A DNA stretch of 64,000 bases from Candidatus Latescibacterota bacterium (lineage in GTDB: Bacteria; Latescibacterota; UBA2968; UBA8231): assembly GCA_964291625.2 (NCBI GenBank), contig OZ220089.1, positions 4,256,001 through 4,320,000 on the forward strand, given 5' to 3'. Below are positions 20,859 to 30,517 of this stretch, in pieces. Position numbers and translations under genes: made by a program. The first letter of the stretch is position 1. The number at the start of each line of letters is the position of its first letter. Below the pieces are notes generated by a model that saw nothing but the letters and a program-made list of their open reading frames with translations, was not told the DNA's origin and searched no databases.

Positions 20859-21605
20859 TCAGCCTCCATCCGGTGCGGATTCCAGGTCGATGCCGAGGGC
20901 GGAGAGCTGGTCCTCGACCTGTCCCGCCCAGCCGCGGTTGGCCGCGGGGCTCGCCGGGCTCGGGTGCAGGATCTCGCCGAAGACGAAGCCGCCGCCGTCC
21001 AGGGCGGCGCGGGCCCGGTCGCGCCCGAAGCGGCCGACGCCCAGCACCCATCGCGGGGAGAGGTGGTCGGCGATCCGCCCGAGGGCCCGGTCGCAGACCT
21101 CGAAGAGGGGGTCCCGCTCGCGCGCCGGGAGCTTGTCGGGCGTGCGGTTGCGGCCGCTCTCCTCGAGGAAGGCGAGGGGGCAGTAGTTCCAGATGAAGAA
21201 CCGGTCGAAGAACCGGTCGGGGGTGCCGAAGCGGTCGCGGGCCCACCCCCACAGGCGCCGGCCGCTGACCTCGCTGCGGCGGCAGGCGAAGCCCTCCACC
21301 GGCCGCCGCGGGTGCTGGGACCGGGGGGTGCGCACACCGCCGTCGATGCCCAGCCAGCCGCGGACGAGGCCGACCTCGCCGAAGGGGACGCCGGTCTGCA
21401 CCATGCCCCAGGGGCCGGGGTTCATGCCCACCAGCAGGACCTCGGCCCCGGGGCGGCAGTAGCGCTCCAGGTAGGCCTTGTGGGCCTCGAAGGCGTAGAC
21501 CAGGGGGTTGTAGACGTGCGCCACCGGGGGGGCGAACCGCAGCCTCCCCGCCCCGCGGCCGAGGGCGCGGGCCACGGAGACCGGCGGCGAGGAGCGGGGG
21601 CTCAT
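20859..21605 (-). CDS. SMUG1-family (family 3) uracil-DNA glycosylase
   Basis: YNPLVYA, GMNPGPWGMVQTGVPFG, EVSGRRLW, NYCPL, HPSPASP. Confidence 0.93.
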   Translation of the reverse strand: MSPRSSPPVSVARALGRGAGRLRFAPPVAHVYNPLVYAFEAHKAYLERYCRPGAEVLLVGMNPGPWGMVQTGVPFGEVGLVRGWLGIDGGVRTPRSQHPRRPVEGFACRRSEVSGRRLWGWARDRFGTPDRFFDRFFIWNYCPLAFLEESGRNRTPDKLPARERDPLFEVCDRALGRIADHLSPRWVLGVGRFGRDRARAALDGGGFVFGEILHPSPASPAANRGWAGQVEDQLSALGIDLESAPDGG

Positions 21606-21618
21606 TCCAGGCCCGGGG

Positions 21619-22562
21619 TCACTCGCTGTAGACCGCCTCGATGAGCCCTCTCATGTAGCCGATGGCGTAGAGGCGTTCCATGGAGTGGACGTCCTCGAAG
21701 TCCTCCCAGGTCAGCTGCGGGAAGTGGTCGGGCCGCGCCACCCCGCCGTAGCCGACGTCCTTGTAGGCCCGGACGCAGGCCGCCATGTCGTGCTGGCCGT
21801 CGTCGTGGAAGGCCTCCTGGAACTTCTCCGGCGTGCCGCGGATGTCGCGGAAGTGGACGAAGTGGATCTTCTCCTGCTCCCCGAAGTGGCGGATGACGCC
21901 GGGCAGGTCGTCGGTCATGAGGCCGAAGTTGCCCTGGCAGAGGCCGATGCCGTTGGCCGGGCTGGGCACGAGATCGACCATGCGCCCTGGATCGGCGACA
22001 GGGGCGGGTCGTCGGGATGCATGGCCAGCTTGACGCCGGCCTCCTCGGCCACGGGCACCACCTGTTCGAGGAAGTACCTCAGGCTCTCCCACTGATCGGC
22101 CTCGGTGATCTCGCCGTGGGCGCCGGCCTCGTGGGTGCGGTTGAACTCCTCGAGGTCGAATCCCGTCACCCGGGAGCCTGCCCGGGACGGCAGCTCCCGC
22201 GAGGTGCGGATCACCATGTGGACGGGCATCCAGGCCGGGCACCAGACCGGGATGCCGGCGGCGCCCATGTTGCGGATGAGCTCGCGGACGACGGCGATCT
22301 CCTCGTCGCGCCCATCCCTCCCGAGCTTGGTATTCTCCATGGGAGGGCGGCTCTCGATGACGGCGAGGCGATAGCCGTTGCTCTCGTATTGCGCCTTGCG
22401 GCGGGCGAGGGAGACGCGGCTGAAGGGCTGGGCGTCGTCGTCGACCGGCTTGCCCTCCAAGGGCGTCAGGTCGAAGGTGCCCACGGCGTGCTCGACGCCG
22501 CACTGGGCGCCGAAGGTCGACACGGCGTTGGCCTCGGGTCCCAGGGCCAGGGCGATGTGCAT
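21619..22562 (-). pseudogene. uxuA: Mannonate dehydratase, split by an internal deletion/frameshift near 21985
   Basis: N-part ends ...MHPDDPPLSPIQG; C-part RMVDLVPSPANG..LCQGNF..HFVHFRD..RPDH lies in another frame; the usual connecting segment is missing. Confidence 0.8.
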
Positions 22563-22739
22563 GGGGTCGTCCTTTCTTCTGGAGGCTTGTCACCCGGCGG
22601 AGGGCTGAAGAAACGGCGCGCCGGCGGCGTGTCAATCACGCGAGGCTCTCCAGGGCCGGCGCCGGGACTGGCCGGCGATCGGCGCGACCCCGCCTCGGCC
22701 GCCCAGCCGGGCGTCCCGCTTCGGCCCGTTCCGGGGCTG

Positions 22740-22768
22740 TTGCCGGGAAGGGAGGGACCCCGTAGATT
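22740..22768 (+). promoter_or_regulatory. Putative sigma70 promoter of the cys leader
   Basis: TTGCCG-N17-TAGATT. Confidence 0.5.
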
Positions 22769-22832
22769 CCTCGGGCTTTGGTCGCCGCGTCGGCGGCCGC
22801 GCTCCACCTGGATCGAGGAAGTGACGAGGAAA

Positions 22833-22949
22833 ATGATCAGGACCCGCGCACATGGCCGATCGGCGTCGGCGCGGGGGACCCGCATGGCGGGGACCTGCTG
22901 CTGCTGTTGTTGTTGCGAGCCCACTCCGGGGCGGGAGGCCGTGCCTTAG
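22833..22949 (+). CDS. Poly-cysteine attenuator leader peptide (38 aa, or 21 aa from ATG 22884)
   Basis: MIRTRAHGRSASARGTRMAGTCCCCCCCEPTPGREAVP*. Seven tandem Cys codons at 22896-22916, upstream of a terminator and cysH. Confidence 0.85.
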   Translation: MIRTRAHGRSASARGTRMAGTCCCCCCCEPTPGREAVP

Positions 22950-23010
22950 ACGCAAGCCGGCCTCGCCAACACGGCAGCGCCGATCCCTGATCACACAGGA
23001 AGGCGCATCC

Positions 23011-23048
23011 ACCGCCCCGATGAGTCAGTCATCGGGGCGGTTTTTTTT
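23011..23048 (+). terminator. Intrinsic terminator (attenuator) upstream of cysH
   Basis: 13-bp stem ACCGCCCCGATGA/TCATCGGGGCGGT, 5-nt loop, T8 tract. Confidence 0.92.
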
Positions 23049-23072
23049 GGAGTGACAAGAGACGGAGGAGTC

Positions 23073-23831
23073 ATGGAAACAGAAGAGTGGACCGGGGAGA
23101 GGCTCGCCCAGGTCAGCGCGGGGCTCGAGACCGCTCATCCCCGGGAGATCATGGCCTGGGCCCTCGACAACTTCCATCCGGACATCGTCCTCGCCTGCAG
23201 CTTCGGCGGCGTCTCCGGCATGGTCCTGCTCGACATGGCCATGAAGAGCGACCGGTCCGTGCCGGTCTTCTACGTGGACACCGGTTTCCTGTTCACGGAG
23301 ACCCACGCCCTCAAGGACGAAGCCGCGCGCCGCTACGGGTTCCTTCCCCTGGCCTTCCGGCCCGACCTGTCCGTCGAGCAGCAGGCCGTCCTGCACGGAC
23401 CGGAGCTGTGGAAGGCCGACCCCGATCTCTGCTGCGAGGTCCGCAAGGTCGGTCCCAACCGGCGCGCTCTCGAAGGCAGGCGCGCATGGATCGCCGGGCT
23501 GCGCCGCGACCAGGGCGAAACCCGCCGCGACGTTGCCATCGTCGCCTGGGACACGAAATTCGACCTCGTCAAGATCAACCCCCTGGCAGCGTGGACCGAG
23601 GACGATGTGTGGAACTACGTCCGCGAGAACGACGTGCCCTACAACAACCTCCACGACCGCGGGTATCCGAGCATCGGCTGCGTCCACTGCACGCGCGCCG
23701 TCAGGCCCGGGGAAGATCCGCGGGCCGGCCGTTGGTCGGGCGGGGACAAGGTGGAGTGCGGCCTCCACACCGGCCCCGAGGGCCGGCCGAGGCAACTCCA
23801 TCACATCGAAGAACTGACGAAAGGAGCGTGA
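23073..23831 (+). CDS. cysH: APS/PAPS reductase (Fe-S type)
   Basis: VDTG, CCEVRK, GLRRDQ, KINPL, YPSIGCVHCT, RAGRW, ECGLH. SD GGAGG. Confidence 0.96.
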   Translation: METEEWTGERLAQVSAGLETAHPREIMAWALDNFHPDIVLACSFGGVSGMVLLDMAMKSDRSVPVFYVDTGFLFTETHALKDEAARRYGFLPLAFRPDLSVEQQAVLHGPELWKADPDLCCEVRKVGPNRRALEGRRAWIAGLRRDQGETRRDVAIVAWDTKFDLVKINPLAAWTEDDVWNYVRENDVPYNNLHDRGYPSIGCVHCTRAVRPGEDPRAGRWSGGDKVECGLHTGPEGRPRQLHHIEELTKGA

Positions 23832-23834
23832 TTC

Positions 23835-24404
23835 TTGGACCACAAGGGAGTGACCATCTGGTTCACCGGGCTGTCAGGCGCGGGCAAGAGCACGATCGCG
23901 GAACGGCTGGTGGCGTTCCTGCGGGAGCGGGGCCTGAAGACCGAGTTGCTCGACGGCGACGTGGTTCGCACGAACCTCAGCAAGGGGCTGGGATTCAGCA
24001 AGGAGGACCGGGACACCAACATCCGCCGCATCGGGTTCGTCAGCCAGCTGCTGACGCGCAACGGCGTCGTCAGCATCGTCTCGGCCATCTCGCCGTATCG
24101 CGAGGTGCGCGACGAGGTGCGCCGCGAGATCGGCAGCTTCATCGAGATTCACGTCCACGCCTCCCTCGACGAGCTGGTGCGGCGTGACGTCAAGGGTCTC
24201 TACGAGAAGGCCCTCAAGGGAGAGATCCCCAACTTCACCGGCGTCTCCGACCCTTACGAGGAGCCGCTGAACCCCGACGTCTTCCTCGACACGGAGCAGG
24301 AGAGCATCGACGAGAGCCTCGCCAAGGTGGTGGACGCCCTGGAGACGCGGGGCCTGATCCCGTCGGGCGCCGCGAGCCAGCCGGTGGAGGAAGCCGCCCG
24401 ATGA
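23835..24404 (+). CDS. cysC: Adenylyl-sulfate kinase
   Basis: WFTGLSGAGKST, LDGDVVR, DVKGLY, FTGVSDPYEEP. Confidence 0.97.
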   Translation: MDHKGVTIWFTGLSGAGKSTIAERLVAFLRERGLKTELLDGDVVRTNLSKGLGFSKEDRDTNIRRIGFVSQLLTRNGVVSIVSAISPYREVRDEVRREIGSFIEIHVHASLDELVRRDVKGLYEKALKGEIPNFTGVSDPYEEPLNPDVFLDTEQESIDESLAKVVDALETRGLIPSGAASQPVEEAAR

Positions 24405-25558
24405 CGATCCCCATCGCACCCCACGGCGGCGAGCTCATCAACCGTCTGGCCTCCACCGCGGAGGCGGAGGAGATCCACGCCCGCGCCGGCGGCCTGCCCC
24501 GCCTCACCCTCTCTCTCCGCGAGTCCGCCGACCTCGACCTCATCGCCGTCGGCGCTATGAGCCCCCTTGCCGGCTTCATGGACCGCGCCGACTACCAGCG
24601 CACCGTGGGCGAGATGCGCCTTGCCGACGGCACCCTCTGGAGCCTGCCCATCACCCTGTCCGCGCCGCCGGAGGCCGCCGCCGCCCTCGGCGCCGGCAGC
24701 GAGGCGGCCCTGCACGACGCCGCGGGACGGCTCGTGGGAGTCATCGCGGTCGACGAGGTCTACCCGTACGACAAGCAGGCCGAGGCGCGGAGCGTCTTCG
24801 GAACGGATGACGAGGACCACCCCGGCGTCGCCTCCGTCTACCGACAGCACGACCTGCTCGTAGGCGGCGCCGTCACCGTCGTCGAGCGCGAGGAGTTGGA
24901 GGAGGTCCTGCGGCCCTACCGGCAGGATCCGTCCGAGACCCGCGCCGCCTTCGCCGAGCGGGAGTGGCGGACGATCGTCGGGTTTCAGACGCGGAACCCG
25001 GTACACCGGGCCCACGAGTACATCCAGAAGGCGGCCCTGGAGATCGTCGACGGCCTGCTGCTGCACCCCCTCGTGGGCGAGACCAAGCCCGACGACATCC
25101 CCGCCGACGTGCGCATGCGCTGCTACGAGGCGCTGCTGGAGGGCTACTATCCGGCCGGCCACGTGCATCTCTCGGTGCTGCCCGCGGCCATGCGCTACGC
25201 CGGCCCCAAGGAGGCGATCTTCCACGCGCTCCTCCGCAAGAACTACGGCTGCACCCACTTCATCGTGGGGCGCGACCACGCCGGCGTCGGGTCGTACTAC
25301 GGCACCTACGAGGCGCAGGACCTGCTGCGCAGCGTGCCGCCCGCCGACCTCGGCATCACCCCCCTGTTCTTCGATCACTCCTTCTACTGCAGGCGCTGCG
25401 AGGGCATGGCCTCCATGAAGACCTGCCCCCACGGGCCGGAGGACCGGGTGATCCTCAGCGGCACGCAGGTGCGCGACATGCTGGCCGCCGGACAGGTGCC
25501 GCCCATGGAGTTCACGCGGCCGGAGGTGGCGCGGATCCTGATCGAGGCCGCGGCGTAG
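24401..25558 (+). CDS. sat: Sulfate adenylyltransferase
   Basis: PHGG.L, FQTRNPVHRAHEY, MRYAGPKEA, FIVGRDHAGVG, SGT.VR. Confidence 0.97.
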   Translation: MTIPIAPHGGELINRLASTAEAEEIHARAGGLPRLTLSLRESADLDLIAVGAMSPLAGFMDRADYQRTVGEMRLADGTLWSLPITLSAPPEAAAALGAGSEAALHDAAGRLVGVIAVDEVYPYDKQAEARSVFGTDDEDHPGVASVYRQHDLLVGGAVTVVEREELEEVLRPYRQDPSETRAAFAEREWRTIVGFQTRNPVHRAHEYIQKAALEIVDGLLLHPLVGETKPDDIPADVRMRCYEALLEGYYPAGHVHLSVLPAAMRYAGPKEAIFHALLRKNYGCTHFIVGRDHAGVGSYYGTYEAQDLLRSVPPADLGITPLFFDHSFYCRRCEGMASMKTCPHGPEDRVILSGTQVRDMLAAGQVPPMEFTRPEVARILIEAAA

Positions 25559-25766: not shown

Positions 25767-27020
25767 CTACTCCACTTCCACCTGCACCCGGCGCCGGTCC
25801 GGGTCGAAGGCGGCCAGGACCGCCCCGTCCTCCACCAGGAGGGTCCCGCTCCGGAAGGCGGCGCGGTTCGGGGCCCGCGCCAGGGGGCGGCCGTCGACCC
25901 GCACCGAGCGCACATCTCCACCGGTCAGGCGCAGGGTCAGCTCAGAGGTCCGCACCGGCAGGTCGAGGCAGACGGTCTTGCCCTCCACCGAGACCTCGGC
26001 CATCTCCCGGGCGCAGGCGTAGGTGGTGATCTGGCTGCAGGTCCGCCACCGGGTGCGCTCGCCCCGGGGATCGCGTTCGGCGAGGCGGCCCACCACCTGC
26101 TGGAAGGCCCGGAAGCCGCGCCGGTCCTCGTCGTGCATCCCGTAGAACCCCTGCCAGTGGCTGATGAGCACCGCCGGCTCTCCCGCGTCGATGAGGGCCG
26201 GCAGGCGGCCGCCCTCGAGGTCGGGGGTGATGTACTTGTCGGCATCGACCTCGCCGTACCCGGTCCAGCTGCCGGTCCAGTCGCCGGTGGAGGCGATGAT
26301 TTCGCCCGTGGCCTGCCCGGCCCGGCGGTCGGGGTGCCACACGGGCGTGTCCACCGTCGCCTCCGAGGAAACCCGCTGAAAGAAGTAGGGCACCGGGTTG
26401 CCGGTGACCTGGCGCACGGCTTCGCCGGCGCAGCGGGCGTAGAAGGGCAGGGTGCGGCCGCCGAAGCCGCCGGGTGAGGTGACCCCCTGGGGTGTCAGGC
26501 CCACGGAGGCGAGGATGCGGCAGGCCCGGGCGATGTACTCGGTGACCAGCTCCTCCTGATCCTCGGGCAGGGCCGCCCAGTCGTACTGCTCCCATATCCC
26601 GGAAGGGAGGGGCTGCAGGGTCTTCGGATCCACGACGAAGGTGTGGGTCAGCATCTCCGGGGTGATGTCGAAGGCGGGGACGATGACCTCGCGGCACATG
26701 GCCAGCCACTCCTCCTGCTGGGCCTTGCTGAAGAGGGGGAGCCCCTCGTCGATGCGCCCCAGGGCGGCCGGGCAGGGCACGACCGAGAACTTGCCGCGCA
26801 CGCCGCTGGCCAGGCACCACTCGGCGAACTCCCGCGTGAAGGAGGTGGGATGGACCACGGGCAGGTCTTCCCAGCGCCGGTCACGGTCCTCTGCCATGGA
26901 GCGGGCGGTCGTGCGGTCGCGGAGGAAGAAGTAGTTGAGGTTCACCAGCACCGTGGAATCGTCGAAGATGATCGACAGGGGCACCCGGTCGAGGGCGTGG
27001 CGGGTGATTTCGGCGAGCAA
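25767..27020 (-). CDS. Hypothetical protein, possible polysaccharide-deacetylase-like fold
   Basis: 417 aa with native codon usage, SD GAGGAG, motifs IIFDD, GKFSVVP, PEMLTH, G.TSPGGFG, SHW. Confidence 0.7.
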   Translation of the reverse strand: MLAEITRHALDRVPLSIIFDDSTVLVNLNYFFLRDRTTARSMAEDRDRRWEDLPVVHPTSFTREFAEWCLASGVRGKFSVVPCPAALGRIDEGLPLFSKAQQEEWLAMCREVIVPAFDITPEMLTHTFVVDPKTLQPLPSGIWEQYDWAALPEDQEELVTEYIARACRILASVGLTPQGVTSPGGFGGRTLPFYARCAGEAVRQVTGNPVPYFFQRVSSEATVDTPVWHPDRRAGQATGEIIASTGDWTGSWTGYGEVDADKYITPDLEGGRLPALIDAGEPAVLISHWQGFYGMHDEDRRGFRAFQQVVGRLAERDPRGERTRWRTCSQITTYACAREMAEVSVEGKTVCLDLPVRTSELTLRLTGGDVRSVRVDGRPLARAPNRAAFRSGTLLVEDGAVLAAFDPDRRRVQVEVE

Positions 27021-27273: not shown

Positions 27274-28380
27274 GTGGCGAGAGACCTGATTGGAGGCAGG
27301 ATCAAGGCGCTGCGGCATGCCCGGGGGCTGTCGCAGGAAGACATGGCGCGCCTGCTGGGATTCAATGACAGGCAGACCATCTCGACGATCGAGATGGGTA
27401 CACGCCGGGTGACGGCGCAGGAACTTCTGCTCGCGGCCGAGAAGCTGGGCGAACCGCTCGCGTACTTCACGGACCCGTTTCGGCTGGAGGGCGAGGGTCG
27501 ATTCTCGTGGCGGCAGACCGGAGTGCCGCCGGAGCGGCTCGTGGAGTACGAGAGGCTCGCAAGTCGATGGATCGGAGCCTATCGCACACTGGCGCCGCAG
27601 GTCGGCCGAGAGACGCGTCTGATGCGCCCGTCGCTGGGCCTGACGCGGGGGTCGCGGTACGAGGAGGCCATCCAGGCAGGCGAGCGCTTCGCCACCGAGC
27701 TTGAGTTGGGGGAGATTCCGGGCGAGCGTCTCGTCGAGGTGATGGAGGGGGCCCTGGGCATCCTGGTGCTCATGGTCAATGCCGGCGAGGGAATCTCCGG
27801 AGCCGCCTGCCGCCTGCCAGAGCTGGACGCGGTGCTCATCGCCCGCCACGAGATTGTGGGACGTCGTCACTTCGACCTGGCGCACGAGTTGTTCCACGTC
27901 CTGACTTGGGAGGCGATGCCGCCCAAGCACATAGAGGAAGCGGTCGAGACGGGCGGCGACCGCGTCGAGCAACTGGCCAACAACTTCGCCGCCGCGGTTC
28001 TGATGCCCTCGGCGGTCGTGGCTCGGTTCGGCCGGTGGGGGAAAACGGACGCGGACTCCCTGGTCGCACGGCTGAACCGGGTCGCGTCGGCACTCAAGGT
28101 GACATCGTCGGCACTCAGGTGGCGGCTCGTAGCGCTTGGGGAGTTGCCGGCCACCACGGCGCGGCAGATTCCCGAGGCGTCGCTCAGGAACAACGGCGGG
28201 ATGGCGGCGGACTCAGCCCCTCCGCCCCTGTTCTCGAAGCCCTTCGCCGAGGTTCTGGGATTGGCACTTGCGCAGGGTCGCGTGTCCGTGCGGCGGGCGG
28301 CCGGGCTGGTAGATGCGCCAGTGGAGGAACTGCCGGGGCTTTTGGCCGCGCACGGCCTCGAGCACAGTGTTGAGCTGTGA
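27274..28380 (+). CDS. XRE-HTH plus ImmA/IrrE metallopeptidase-domain protein
   Basis: N-terminal HTH (LSQEDMARLLG...IEMG.R), FDLAHELFH, EQLANNFAAAVLMP. Confidence 0.92.
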   Translation: MARDLIGGRIKALRHARGLSQEDMARLLGFNDRQTISTIEMGTRRVTAQELLLAAEKLGEPLAYFTDPFRLEGEGRFSWRQTGVPPERLVEYERLASRWIGAYRTLAPQVGRETRLMRPSLGLTRGSRYEEAIQAGERFATELELGEIPGERLVEVMEGALGILVLMVNAGEGISGAACRLPELDAVLIARHEIVGRRHFDLAHELFHVLTWEAMPPKHIEEAVETGGDRVEQLANNFAAAVLMPSAVVARFGRWGKTDADSLVARLNRVASALKVTSSALRWRLVALGELPATTARQIPEASLRNNGGMAADSAPPPLFSKPFAEVLGLALAQGRVSVRRAAGLVDAPVEELPGLLAAHGLEHSVEL

Positions 28381-28565: not shown

Positions 28566-28692
28566 TGACGATGCCGGGGAAGGCGATGGTGCCCGCTTGC
28601 GTGTTGTCCAAGGATGCAGTCGAAGCCCCGGTCTGCGGCGGTAGCTGGGCCGGGAAGCGCGGACCTCAACGTGACGGAGAGCGTCGTTCAGG

Positions 28693-29684
28693 TCACTCGC
28701 CGACCATGGCAGCAGCCAGACGATCCAGGAGTCCGTCATCGGCCGGCATCAACCCCGAGGCCGGCAGACGCCGCAGCAGGTCGACCCAGCGGTGGTTCTG
28801 CGCCTGCGCCCGTTTCAGGTAGGGCACGGCCTCCTCCTCGCGCCCCTCGCCGGCCAGAGTCACACCCACCCAGAACGGGGCCTCCCGCCGGTGGCCTCGT
28901 CGGACACCAGTTCGGTGGCGGCGCGGTAGGCATCCATGGCGGCCTCCAGGTCCCCCGCGGTCACCAGCTCGTCCCCTTCGTTGAGCTTGTGGTAGGCGCG
29001 CGCCAGACGGACCAGGCGCCGCAGCTCTTCAACCGGCTCGGGATGATCGTCCACGCGCAGGTCGAAGACGCGGTCGACCCACGGCCGGCCGGTATCCTCG
29101 GCGGAGACCACGAGGATCGCCGCCGACTGGCGGCCTCGCAGGTCGCCCCCCTCGGCCTCGGCGACTTCCAGGGCCGCGAGCAGCCGCTCGGCCAGATCGC
29201 CCTCGGCGTTCTCGTAGGCCCTGGCCATGGCCGGCCAGACGCTGCCCCGGTCCATCAGGTTCGCCTGAACGCTGTACTGGGCTCCGGCGTGGTGGCCGGC
29301 GGCGGCGATGGCGCGCTCACCCGTGTGCACCGCGACGTTCCCTTCGGCATCGACCATGGCCACTTGCCGCACCGCGGCGTCGGCATCCCCGGCGAGCAGG
29401 GCGGTGAGCGCCTCCCGGGCCGTCTTGCCCATGGCCATCAGTTCGAGGCCGAGGGGACCGTAGGCCGGGTCGACGAGGGACTGGGTGGCCACGGCGCCGA
29501 CGCCGGGACGGGCCCACGGAACGATGGGACCCACGGAGAACCAGTGGGACTGCACCGCCACCCCGAGTTGGCCGCTGACGGAGTCGCGGGCGACGATGGA
29601 GTAGGTAGCCACGGGCCGCCGCCAGTCCGGTGCGGCCGCCGCGGCCAGCTGTGCCGTGGTGAGAATCAGGATGATCGCGCCCAT
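28693..29684 (-). pseudogene. DUF1028 (Ntn-hydrolase-like) secreted protein with TPR tail; 1-nt frameshift at 28884-28886
   Basis: TYSIVARD, GAVATQS, GGDLRGRQSAA, DLRVDDH. Adding one G restores EAPFWVGVTL...RWVDLLRRLPASGLMP to a stop at 28693. May be a sequencing error. Confidence 0.8.
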
Positions 29685-29707
29685 CGTTCCTCCTCGGGGG
29701 GGCATTT

Positions 29708-30517
29708 TCAGAAGATCTCCAGAACCGGCCGGCCTTCCCAGTCTTCGGCCAATGGCAGATCCAGGACGTGGGCGAGTGTCGGCGCCGTATCGATGATGCT
29801 CACCGGCTGCTCGATCTCGCCGGTCTTGCGGATCTTCGCTCCCGCCGCGATCCACGGGATCGTCAGGTCCTCGGGCATGTCGGTTCCGTGGCTCTGCCCG
29901 TGCCCGCCGTGGTCGCTCTGGAGGAGGATGAAGTAGCGGTCCAGGAGACCCGCTCTCTCCAGTTCCTCCAACAGGATCCCGATCGCCCGGTCCGCGGCGC
30001 CGATCTGCTCGATGTACTCGGCGGACATCCAGCCATGCCGGTGTCCCACGATGTCCACGATCCCCAGGTAGACGAAGCAGAAGTCCGGCTCCTCCGCCGC
30101 CAGGTGCTCCGCCGCGACGCGCCCCATCGTCAGGTCGCCCTCCGGCTCGTCGAGGTTGGCCCGGTAGTAGGAGAAGTCCAGGGAGCCCGGCCCCGCCAGG
30201 TCCCGGAGCTGCTCCCAGTTGTAGACGAAGGCCGTCTTGCGGCTCTCGGCGTGGGCGGCCTCGGCGATGCTCGGAACGGGCCGCACCATGGGCACCCACG
30301 TGTTGGTGGTGATGCCGTGCCGCGACGGCGTCACGCCGCGGAACATCGAGGTGTGGCACGGCAGGGTGGAGGAGGGGACGACGCTCTGCGCGTTGAGAGT
30401 GTAGGCCCCCCGTGCCATCAGGCTGTCGATGGCCGGCGTCTCCGCCTGCTCGATGCCGTCGGGGCGGCAGCCGTCGATGACGATGAGGATGGTGCCGCAA
30501 CCACTGGGACTCTGCAT
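29708..30517 (-). CDS. Alkaline-phosphatase-superfamily (nucleotide pyrophosphatase-like) protein
   Basis: IDGCRPD, PSSTLPCH.SMF.G, D..GH.HG, SDHGG..HG. SD GAGGAG. Confidence 0.9.
   Translation of the reverse strand: MQSPSGCGTILIVIDGCRPDGIEQAETPAIDSLMARGAYTLNAQSVVPSSTLPCHTSMFRGVTPSRHGITTNTWVPMVRPVPSIAEAAHAESRKTAFVYNWEQLRDLAGPGSLDFSYYRANLDEPEGDLTMGRVAAEHLAAEEPDFCFVYLGIVDIVGHRHGWMSAEYIEQIGAADRAIGILLEELERAGLLDRYFILLQSDHGGHGQSHGTDMPEDLTIPWIAAGAKIRKTGEIEQPVSIIDTAPTLAHVLDLPLAEDWEGRPVLEIF

Follow-up and report, generated by a model that had tools for sequence, protein, structure and literature searches.

What controls transcription into a sulfate-assimilation operon that is preceded by a short open reading frame (ORF) with seven consecutive cysteine codons and by an intrinsic terminator? 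Known controls of sulfate assimilation are the proteins CysB and CymR and RNAs of the S-box or T-box type. The question is raised by a 64,000-nucleotide stretch of DNA from Candidatus Latescibacterota bacterium (GenBank assembly GCA_964291625.2, contig OZ220089.1, positions 4,256,001 to 4,320,000), here called the window and numbered from its first letter, in which such a leader stands directly before cysH, cysC and sat. An earlier reading of these letters without database searches (the sequence-only reading) had proposed that the leader stops or permits transcription according to the supply of cysteine. Following up this proposal computationally, we consider it likely that the element is a ribosome-mediated leader-peptide transcription attenuator, predicted to sense charged tRNA-Cys and to control read-through into cysH-cysC-sat. 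We infer translation of the leader ORF, ribosome stalling, termination and dependence on cysteine from the anatomy of the locus, its conservation and its predicted folds. Judged from the sequence, every testable defining feature of a leader-peptide attenuator is present.

The promoter-like site, the ORF with seven Cys codons, its stop codon and the terminator with eight T residues (T8) 24 nt before cysH, all of which the sequence-only reading had pointed out, were confirmed at their positions. The features of the locus are as follows.

22740-22768, + strand: promoter-like TTGCCG-N17-TAGATT (TTGCCG 22740-45; TAGATT 22763-68), recognised from the sequence
About 22774-76, + strand: predicted transcription start
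22826-22829, + strand: Shine-Dalgarno-like GAGG, 3 nt before the ATG at 22833
22833-22949, + strand: leader ORF of 38 codons and a stop, encoding MIRTRAHGRSASARGTRMAGTCCCCCCCEPTPGREAVP (TAG stop at 22947-49)
22884, + strand: second leader ATG, in frame with that at 22833
22892-22919, + strand: region 1, the Cys codons and their flanks, 5' strand of the predicted anti-antiterminator, pairing with 22965-86
22896-22916, + strand: seven Cys codons, TGC TGC TGC TGT TGT TGT TGC, in the frame of the leader ORF
22927-22934, + strand: strand A, CGGGGCGG, 5' strand of the predicted antiterminator, inside the ORF (codons P-G-R)
22935-22964, + strand: predicted hairpin H1 (GAGGCCG ... CGGCCUC), with the leader stop codon in its loop (RNAalifold)
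22965-22986, + strand: region 2, GCCAACACGGCAGCGCC..., 3' strand of the predicted anti-antiterminator
22977-23006, + strand: predicted hairpin H2 (GCGCC..CCUG..CAGG..GGCGC)
23012-23019, + strand: region 3, CCGCCCCG, shared by the terminator (as its 5' arm) and the predicted antiterminator (as its 3' strand)
23011-23048, + strand: intrinsic terminator, a 13-bp stem (9 G-C pairs) with a 5-nt loop (stem 23011-41, T8 23041-48)
Within the terminator, + strand: region 4, its 3' arm, followed by T8
23073-23831, + strand: cysH, phosphoadenylyl-sulfate / adenylyl-sulfate reductase (PF01507, 2e-50; NF002537, 261.5 bits against a cut-off of 154)
23835-24404, + strand: cysC, adenylyl-sulfate kinase (PF01583, 5e-60; NF002059, 279 bits)
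24401-25558, + strand: sat, sulfate adenylyltransferase (PF01747, PF14306; NF003166, 536 bits)

If the Cys codons matter, they should be kept in frame in relatives, and the sequence-only reading had named their loss from that frame as grounds for refutation. The closest named relatives of the window genome are labelled Gemmatimonadaceae or 'Candidatus Latescibacterota'. Among nine other genomes of the genus, CysH is present at 76-92% identity in four and at 37-38% in another four, one genome being without it; upstream of the four close loci lie in-frame Cys codons in the arrangements CCCCCC, CCCCCC, CCRC and CSCCC. A CysH search of 185,579 species genomes returned 29 loci, 24 of them at 72-92% identity. 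These 24 are the four same-genus records and 20 metagenome-assembled genomes (MAGs) of Dehalococcoidia/Chloroflexota, and all 20 of the latter carry the leader, with the same RNA strands. A covariance model built from the leader, R1, was searched against 151 sampled genomes of the Dehalococcoidia class and gave eight strong matches, of which L075 was new; JGI metagenomes, scanned for the pattern, contributed a single contig (L086), the leader peptide of which is identical to that of L047. The leader family thus comprises 27 distinct loci, five from the genus of the window (L001, L031, L032, L033 and L051) and 22 from Dehalococcoidia/Chloroflexota, in which a homologous leader and cysH-cysC-sat cassette are found at 72-95% amino-acid identity. 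Cys codons are kept in frame upstream of cysH in all 27 leaders and in both phyla.

R1 recovered 27 of 27 members and none of ten other cysH loci, and finds one copy per genome, always directly before cysH. Weaker R1 matches, at 18-21 bits in eight Dehalococcoidia genomes and in L066, proved on inspection to be terminators or unrelated sequence. At the other cysH loci of relatives (L006-L030), three or more consecutive Cys codons within 450 nt upstream were found in 0 of 25, and a chance 'CC' in six. The public sequencing runs that hold the stretch are mostly sponge metagenomes.

Is the leader ORF a coding sequence? An ATG-to-stop frame of 27-39 codons is present in all 27 members, every difference in length is in frame, and the other two reading frames contain stops in most members. 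The initial M1 and the motifs T-C-x-C and G-R-x-A are invariant in all 21 distinct leader peptides; the Dehalococcoidia consensus ends ...AAVTCSCYMPVPGREAxx before the stop. The N-terminal part is wholly different between lineages (MIRTRAHGRSASARG..., MIATPAPTTR..., MNSYAHTYSPS...). Leaders hold two Cys codons (most Dehalococcoidia), three, four, six or seven. A TAC (Tyr) codon has become TGT (Cys), a two-base change, in both L052 and L075, which belong to different TAC-bearing clades on the CysH tree; these changes point to selection for Cys codons and not for a particular RNA sequence. The leader peptides matched none of the NCBIfam leader families, and a profile of them, compared with 1.84 billion representatives, found two clusters, both of the leader family.

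The leader features exceed what chance produces in this genome, which was scanned as two contigs (G000) of 5,912,291 bases at 69.6% G+C. Runs of at least four TGY codons, counted in any frame, number 57 (52 of length four, four of length five and none of length six), the leader run of seven being the longest Cys-codon run of the genome. It is also the only one of the 57 with a T6 within 200 nt downstream. Runs of seven or more T residues number 28 on both strands, and eight of these follow a perfect stem of at least 9 bp, the leader terminator included. A search with R1 for a wider Cys regulon in the genome found this one copy only.

Can the leader RNA adopt alternative structures of the kind required? 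The antiterminator put forward by the sequence-only reading, in which strand A pairs with region 3 (A:3; 22927-34 with 23012-19), consists of eight pairs, all G/C; the strands are complementary, and the helix forms in the ribosome-masked folds of 27 of 27 members described below. In an alignment of 25 sequences (A2), the A:3 pairs (positions 40-46 with 127-133) are kept in 23-25 sequences, with 91.9% of cells paired; for A:3 and the terminator (3:4) together, 92-97% of cells are kept. The terminator stem and T-run are kept in all 27 members. The antiterminator was also said to be extended by GUGCCUU (22941-47) pairing with AAGGCGC (23000-06). This helix, which includes one G-U pair, is present in the window and is unconserved: it is absent from L031, L051 and all Dehalococcoidia, lies outside the minimum-energy antiterminated fold, is made of the H1 loop and the 3' strand of H2, and competes with these two conserved hairpins. 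We rejected it.

These two hairpins are kept with compensatory changes. H1 is paired in 99.3% of cells in the 25 sequences, its inner stems differ between members, and its pair 52-71 is C-G in 21 sequences, U-A in two and U-G in two. The outer GCGC pairs of H2 are kept in 22-25 of the 25, and its inner stems vary yet stay paired (CCUG/CAGG, GACU/AGUC, UCUG/CAGA, GUCUCUG/CAGAGAC).

A further helix was missed by the sequence-only reading. The Cys codons of region 1 can pair with the stretch that follows H1 (region 2), and this predicted anti-antiterminator (1:2) has a duplex energy of -21.9 kcal/mol in the window and of -11.2 to -22.5 kcal/mol across 27 of 27 members. The sequence of region 2 tracks the changes in the Cys region (ACACGAGC, ACACAGCAG, CAACACGGCAGC, ACAGCACGACGGCAGC), and an ACAC conserved after H1 is explained as the partner of UGU Cys codons within the 1:2 helix. 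With this helix over the Cys codons, the predicted element has the complete classical attenuator design. The distances also fit: the G-run of strand A comes 14 or 17 nt after the start of the last Cys codon in every one of the 27 members, which would place strand A just outside a stalled ribosome, and the stop codon lies 19-25 nt past the start of that G-run, again in all 27.

A structure of this kind could instead be a riboswitch-like or protein-binding ON switch for a sulfur metabolite, with the ORF and its Cys codons incidental. The predicted antiterminated state is indeed a multi-branch junction of A:3, H1 and H2, in which A:3 resembles a P1 closing helix with the terminator arm as its 3' strand; H1 and H2 show the compensatory changes just described, and GGGGCGGGAGGCC and ACAC are highly conserved. 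Against this reading, the ORF, its start, the position of its stop and T-C-x-C persist in all 27 members, and there have been repeated gains of Cys codons. The ACAC is accounted for as the partner of the UGU codons, and the loops of H1 and H2 vary freely. Searched with Rfam 15, the whole window contained no match at the gathering score (sulfur-related riboswitches and the T-box included), and positions 21500-24500 gave two chance-level matches only, with E-values of 1.9 and 2.4. We regard a metabolite switch as very improbable.

To follow the proposed attenuator through its states, we folded nascent transcripts with the ribosome footprint masked, placing the 3' edge of the ribosome 12 nt past the first base of the A-site codon, a figure known from toeprints and footprints. 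In ribosome-free window transcripts ending at 22980-23010, the 1:2 helix is the best fold, with 12-15 pairs; across the family, 1:2 forms with 8-16 pairs in 26 of 27 ribosome-free nascent transcripts that end before region 3. With a ribosome on any of the Cys codons 1-7 of the window, A:3 forms with all 8 of its 8 pairs, falling to 5 of 8 on the seventh codon if the edge is set at +15; with a ribosome at the stop codon, none of the 8 forms. The members behave alike, the antiterminator having at least 6 of 7 pairs with a ribosome on the first or last Cys codon and 0 of 7 with one at the stop codon (27 of 27 in each case), as the sequence-only reading had predicted for masked folds. Full-length ribosome-free leaders form the terminator with at least 6 of 7 pairs in 24 of 27 members, and in the window the combination of 1:2 and terminator is computed at -140.7 kcal/mol, against -125.5 kcal/mol with the antiterminator forced.

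These predicted folds suggest the following mechanism. Transcription would start near 22775, and the 38-codon leader ORF would be translated. When cysteine is plentiful, the ribosome would pass the Cys codons, cover strand A and H1 and end at the TAG in the H1 loop; with strand A covered as region 3 (23012-19) emerges, the 13-bp terminator would form and RNA polymerase would stop at T8. With no ribosome on the Cys codons, region 1 would pair with region 2 as soon as the latter is made, locking strand A in a closed loop and again allowing the terminator. When Cys-tRNA is scarce, the ribosome would stall on the Cys run and cover region 1, and strand A, lying beyond its 3' edge, would pair with region 3. 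The A:3 helix would then close a junction holding H1 and H2, the 5' arm of the terminator would be sequestered, and transcription would enter the operon.

Does the leader act at the terminator or after it? The T-run is separated by 24 nt from the cysH ATG (23073), which has a Shine-Dalgarno GGAGG (23064-68) 4 nt before it; the GAGG of the leader ORF has a similar geometry. The gene upstream of the leader is on the opposite strand, so the terminator serves no preceding gene. The predicted 5' untranslated region (5' UTR) before the leader ORF is about 58 nt long in the window. A simple sigma-70 scan did not call the promoter-like site at 22740-68, because too few of its 12 consensus positions match, and we propose it as a putative promoter on its conservation in relatives only: relatives from the same genus have TTGCCG/TAGATT, TTGCCA/TAGTTT and TTGACA/TATTTT at the same position, and Dehalococcoidia have the consensus TTGACA-N17-TATAGT at the homologous position, 24 nt 5' of the ATG. 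The length of the 5' UTR varies strongly from one member of the genus to another. L032 and L033, like the window, have about 58 nt and a Shine-Dalgarno sequence; in L051 the leader ATG lies about 23 nt past the -10 box, and in L031 only 9 nt past it, making that leader nearly leaderless.

A leader ORF that senses cysteine might act post-transcriptionally, through Rho-dependent polarity or by making the ribosome-binding site of cysH accessible, with the T8 hairpin left unregulated. The only Cys leader ORFs that have been tested act on translation, according to the accessible text of bioRxiv 10.1101/834739, and the nearly leaderless L031 recalls this arrangement. In the predicted fold of the window, however, the cysH Shine-Dalgarno sequence begins 16 nt past the T-run and is unpaired, in the loop of a weak 5-bp hairpin. 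The 13-bp stem with its T8 belongs to a set of only eight in the genome, it is kept throughout the family, and strand A is exactly complementary to its 5' arm. Post-transcriptional action, like the metabolite switch, we hold to have little chance of being the explanation, and we retain the transcription attenuator.

Public RNA libraries provide some further observations, as assembled contigs of public runs, which cannot define transcript ends. Two metatranscriptome runs from one study each hold one short contig of a six-Cys relative, corresponding to approximately 22774-23006 and 22789-23006; for this strain neither the region upstream of the leader nor cysH is covered in the two runs, and uncovered parts carry no meaning. 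One contig starts at 22774/75, 6-7 nt past the -10 box, and both end at the foot of the terminator, which a DNA contig from another run spans. In a third RNA run cysH-cysC is covered (23095-24073) and the leader is uncovered. The contigs are a weak hint of abundant terminated leader RNA.

Less probable still than either of the alternatives above is that cysteine is not sensed at all, the leader being either a constitutive attenuator or a gene for a small protein or small RNA, for instance a Cys-rich peptide with its own function or a stable leader RNA that works in trans: RNA-library contigs do cover the leader alone, within Dehalococcoidia the peptide shows moderate conservation in its N-terminal part, and trans-acting leader peptides and RNAs are known (peTrpL; accessible part of PMC7298713), but that N-terminal part differs wholly between lineages while the Cys codons and RNA strands are kept, most members have only two Cys residues, the element always stands directly before cysH and once per genome, and the peptide profile reached nothing beyond its two leader-family clusters.

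Several points weigh against the attenuator as proposed here. The sequence-only reading had suggested looking in relatives for conserved Cys runs and for covariation in the stems; the Cys codons are conserved, and the antiterminator and terminator show no covariation because their key strands (A and regions 3 and 4) are nearly invariant. Across the whole structure only 1 of 22 pairs shows a two-sided change, and shuffle controls are unimpressive; we set these statistics aside as uninformative, since the key helices never vary. The 27 leader sequences are close kin, with an effective number of 2.22, so that counts of 27 of 27 overstate their independence. Compared with base-shuffled partners, the 1:2 duplex attains the 5% level or better in no more than 12 of the 27 members, with values of 0.057-0.20 for the remaining 15. 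Most leader ORFs of Dehalococcoidia lack a clear Shine-Dalgarno sequence. When the masked leader is folded at equilibrium, every masked state favours the terminator as soon as its 3' arm is present, and the switch must therefore be kinetic; for this reason equilibrium folding of the full masked leader was dropped as a model of the switch and nascent folds were used. Five loop-proximal pairs of the window terminator lie outside the antiterminator and might be a starting point for strand displacement. In transcripts that stop just short of the 3' arm, the ribosome-free fold already favours the antiterminator in the window and in three of six other members folded, so that termination without a ribosome would depend on the order of folding. 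The helices 1:2 and A:3 cross, and a pseudoknot holding both may form. Finally, the leader RNA contigs come from two non-independent runs of the one study and could reflect DNA carry-over.

How does the predicted element compare with known systems? Leader-peptide transcription attenuators are classical in amino-acid operons (trp, his, leu, thr, pheA) of Proteobacteria, as the accessible portions of PMC4007540 and PMC2965389 describe. The window leader shares with them an ORF with cognate codons, a region 1 over those codons that pairs with a region 2, an antiterminator that excludes a Rho-independent terminator, and a place directly before a biosynthetic operon. It differs in its amino acid (cysteine), its sulfate-activation targets and its hosts, which are Gemmatimonadota-like bacteria and Chloroflexota. 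Its architecture differs as well: the antiterminator draws its 5' strand from within the ORF, ahead of the stop codon, and closes a junction with two conserved hairpins, unlike the simple 2:3 hairpin of the classical systems.

Cysteine leaders have been proposed elsewhere. Before cysS in Rhodobacterales, uORFC-8-2 is a predicted terminator-type Cys attenuator with 145 examples (Brewer et al. 2021, PMC8632094, in its accessible text). Like the window leader it is predicted to be ribosome-mediated, with conserved Cys codons (two in tandem) in its first stem, followed by a terminator stem and U-run; as described in that text, it is set apart by its target, cysteinyl-tRNA synthetase, and by its alphaproteobacterial hosts. 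The cysS gene of Deinococcus deserti has a ten-residue Cys leader proposed to attenuate transcription (de Groot et al. 2014, PMC4007540, as excerpted). That leader too is non-actinobacterial, with two Cys codons; unlike the window leader its peptide has ten residues, it is leaderless and its target is cysS, as far as the excerpt describes it.

For Mycobacterium, P. acnes and B. longum, too, leader ORFs with Cys runs have been predicted ahead of cys operons, and the accessible text reports that no terminators were found there (Seliverstov 2005, PMC1262725). The polycysteine leaders of M. smegmatis act on translation, freeing a ribosome-binding site (Canestrari 2020, bioRxiv 10.1101/834739; PMC13236596; parts of each). 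In these sources the mycobacterial short ORFs resemble the window leader in that upstream Cys-codon runs sense Cys-tRNA for cysteine-related operons, two or more codons being sufficient; unlike it, they are described there as leaderless, translational and without terminators. The window leader does not fit the mycobacterial type, with its 5' UTR of about 58 nt, its Shine-Dalgarno sequence and, in the predicted fold, a cysH Shine-Dalgarno that is not paired with the leader. Its peptide gave no match to NF042939 ('Rv2334A family Cys-rich leader peptide'), the best relative, L045, scoring 12.7 bits against a cut-off of 35.

The sequence-only reading had judged the element to be undescribed. This holds for the target genes and the phyla; for terminator-type Cys leader ORFs as such it does not, as these had already been predicted before cysS. 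Full-text searches of the literature gave no description of such an element before cysH, cysC or sat, or in Gemmatimonadota/Chloroflexota, although supplements (Canestrari 2020 Table S2, de Groot 2014 Table S9, Brewer 2021) may list more. An account of 2010 describes leader peptides as known from Proteobacteria and Actinobacteria alone and mentions newly reported cases in Firmicutes (PMC2965389, accessible part).

Some further observations concern the operon and its surroundings. In most Dehalococcoidia loci an inverted repeat, GTGA(C)-N4-6-(G)TCAC, lies directly 5' of the TTGACA -35 sequence, about 60-45 nt upstream of the leader -10 box (L034-L053, L058, L075, L086); it is absent from the window. 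From its sequence it resembles a site for a dimeric transcription factor, and the operon there may have a second, protein-based input. The Dehalococcoidia loci also have a sulfite reductase gene (NIR_SIR domains) after sat (L038 5666-6697 and homologues), so that in these loci all the steps from sulfate to sulfide may come under the attenuator. The sulfite reductase of the window genome is on its other contig (C2 803261-805594) behind a promoter-like site of its own, with no Cys ORF and no T-run upstream.

The window CysH contains DLCCEV, GCVHCT and ECGLH. The Cys-Cys ... Cys-x-x-Cys pattern formed by the first two is, we take it, the mark of the iron-sulfur adenylyl-sulfate (APS) reductase type; the operon encodes an APS kinase despite this pattern. 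By profile, the protein is above the cut-off for phosphoadenylyl-sulfate (PAPS) reductase (NF002537) and just under that for APS reductase (TIGR02055, 220 against 235 bits). The divergent ORF upstream of the leader (21915-22562, - strand, 215 codons) matches only parts of the mannonate dehydratase (UxuA) profile, in two stretches against a profile length of 352-394, and may be a truncated gene or a distant TIM-barrel relative. Downstream of the cassette lie a helix-turn-helix and Peptidase_M78 (IrrE-like) gene (27274-28380, + strand) and a DUF1028 gene (28860-30500, - strand); the ORFs at 25767-27020 (- strand) and 28614-29936 (+ strand) matched no Pfam family.

How did one leader come to be in two phyla? 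The leader-cysH-cysC-sat cassette is 72-85% identical in amino acids between them, and CysH of other members of the window's own class reaches 44-48% identity only. On the CysH tree a Dehalococcoidia row without the leader, L054, is sister to the clade of 26 rows that bear it, and L051, from the genus of the window, groups with Dehalococcoidia rows at supports of 86-96. These sequence relationships indicate that the cassette, comprising promoter, leader, cysH, cysC and sat, has been transferred across phyla; the CysH tree (supports 86-93) does not settle the direction. Because the predicted sensor needs only the ribosome, RNA polymerase and tRNA-Cys of its host, it can travel with its operon and work in a new phylum.

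The element stands out for the pathway it targets, for the phyla that host it, for having moved between phyla along with the operon and for its natural series of Cys-codon numbers. On balance we favour the view that it is the first terminator-type Cys leader attenuator on genes of sulfate assimilation and, in either Gemmatimonadota-like bacteria or Chloroflexota, the first leader-peptide attenuator, and that it belongs to a self-contained cassette of promoter, sensor and operon that moves between phyla among sponge symbionts, its sensitivity having been retuned after transfer as the Cys run grew from two codons to six or seven and its pairing partner followed. If this is true, a Cys attenuator of the terminator type before cysH-cysC-sat would be one more, protein-free, means of controlling sulfate assimilation, and leader-peptide attenuation would extend to two poorly studied, largely uncultured phyla. 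The natural series of two, three, four, six and seven Cys codons would lend itself to testing how an attenuator's threshold depends on the number of codons. Common to Dehalococcoidia and to a Gemmatimonadaceae-like genus from sponges, the cassette would be a natural example of portable regulation.

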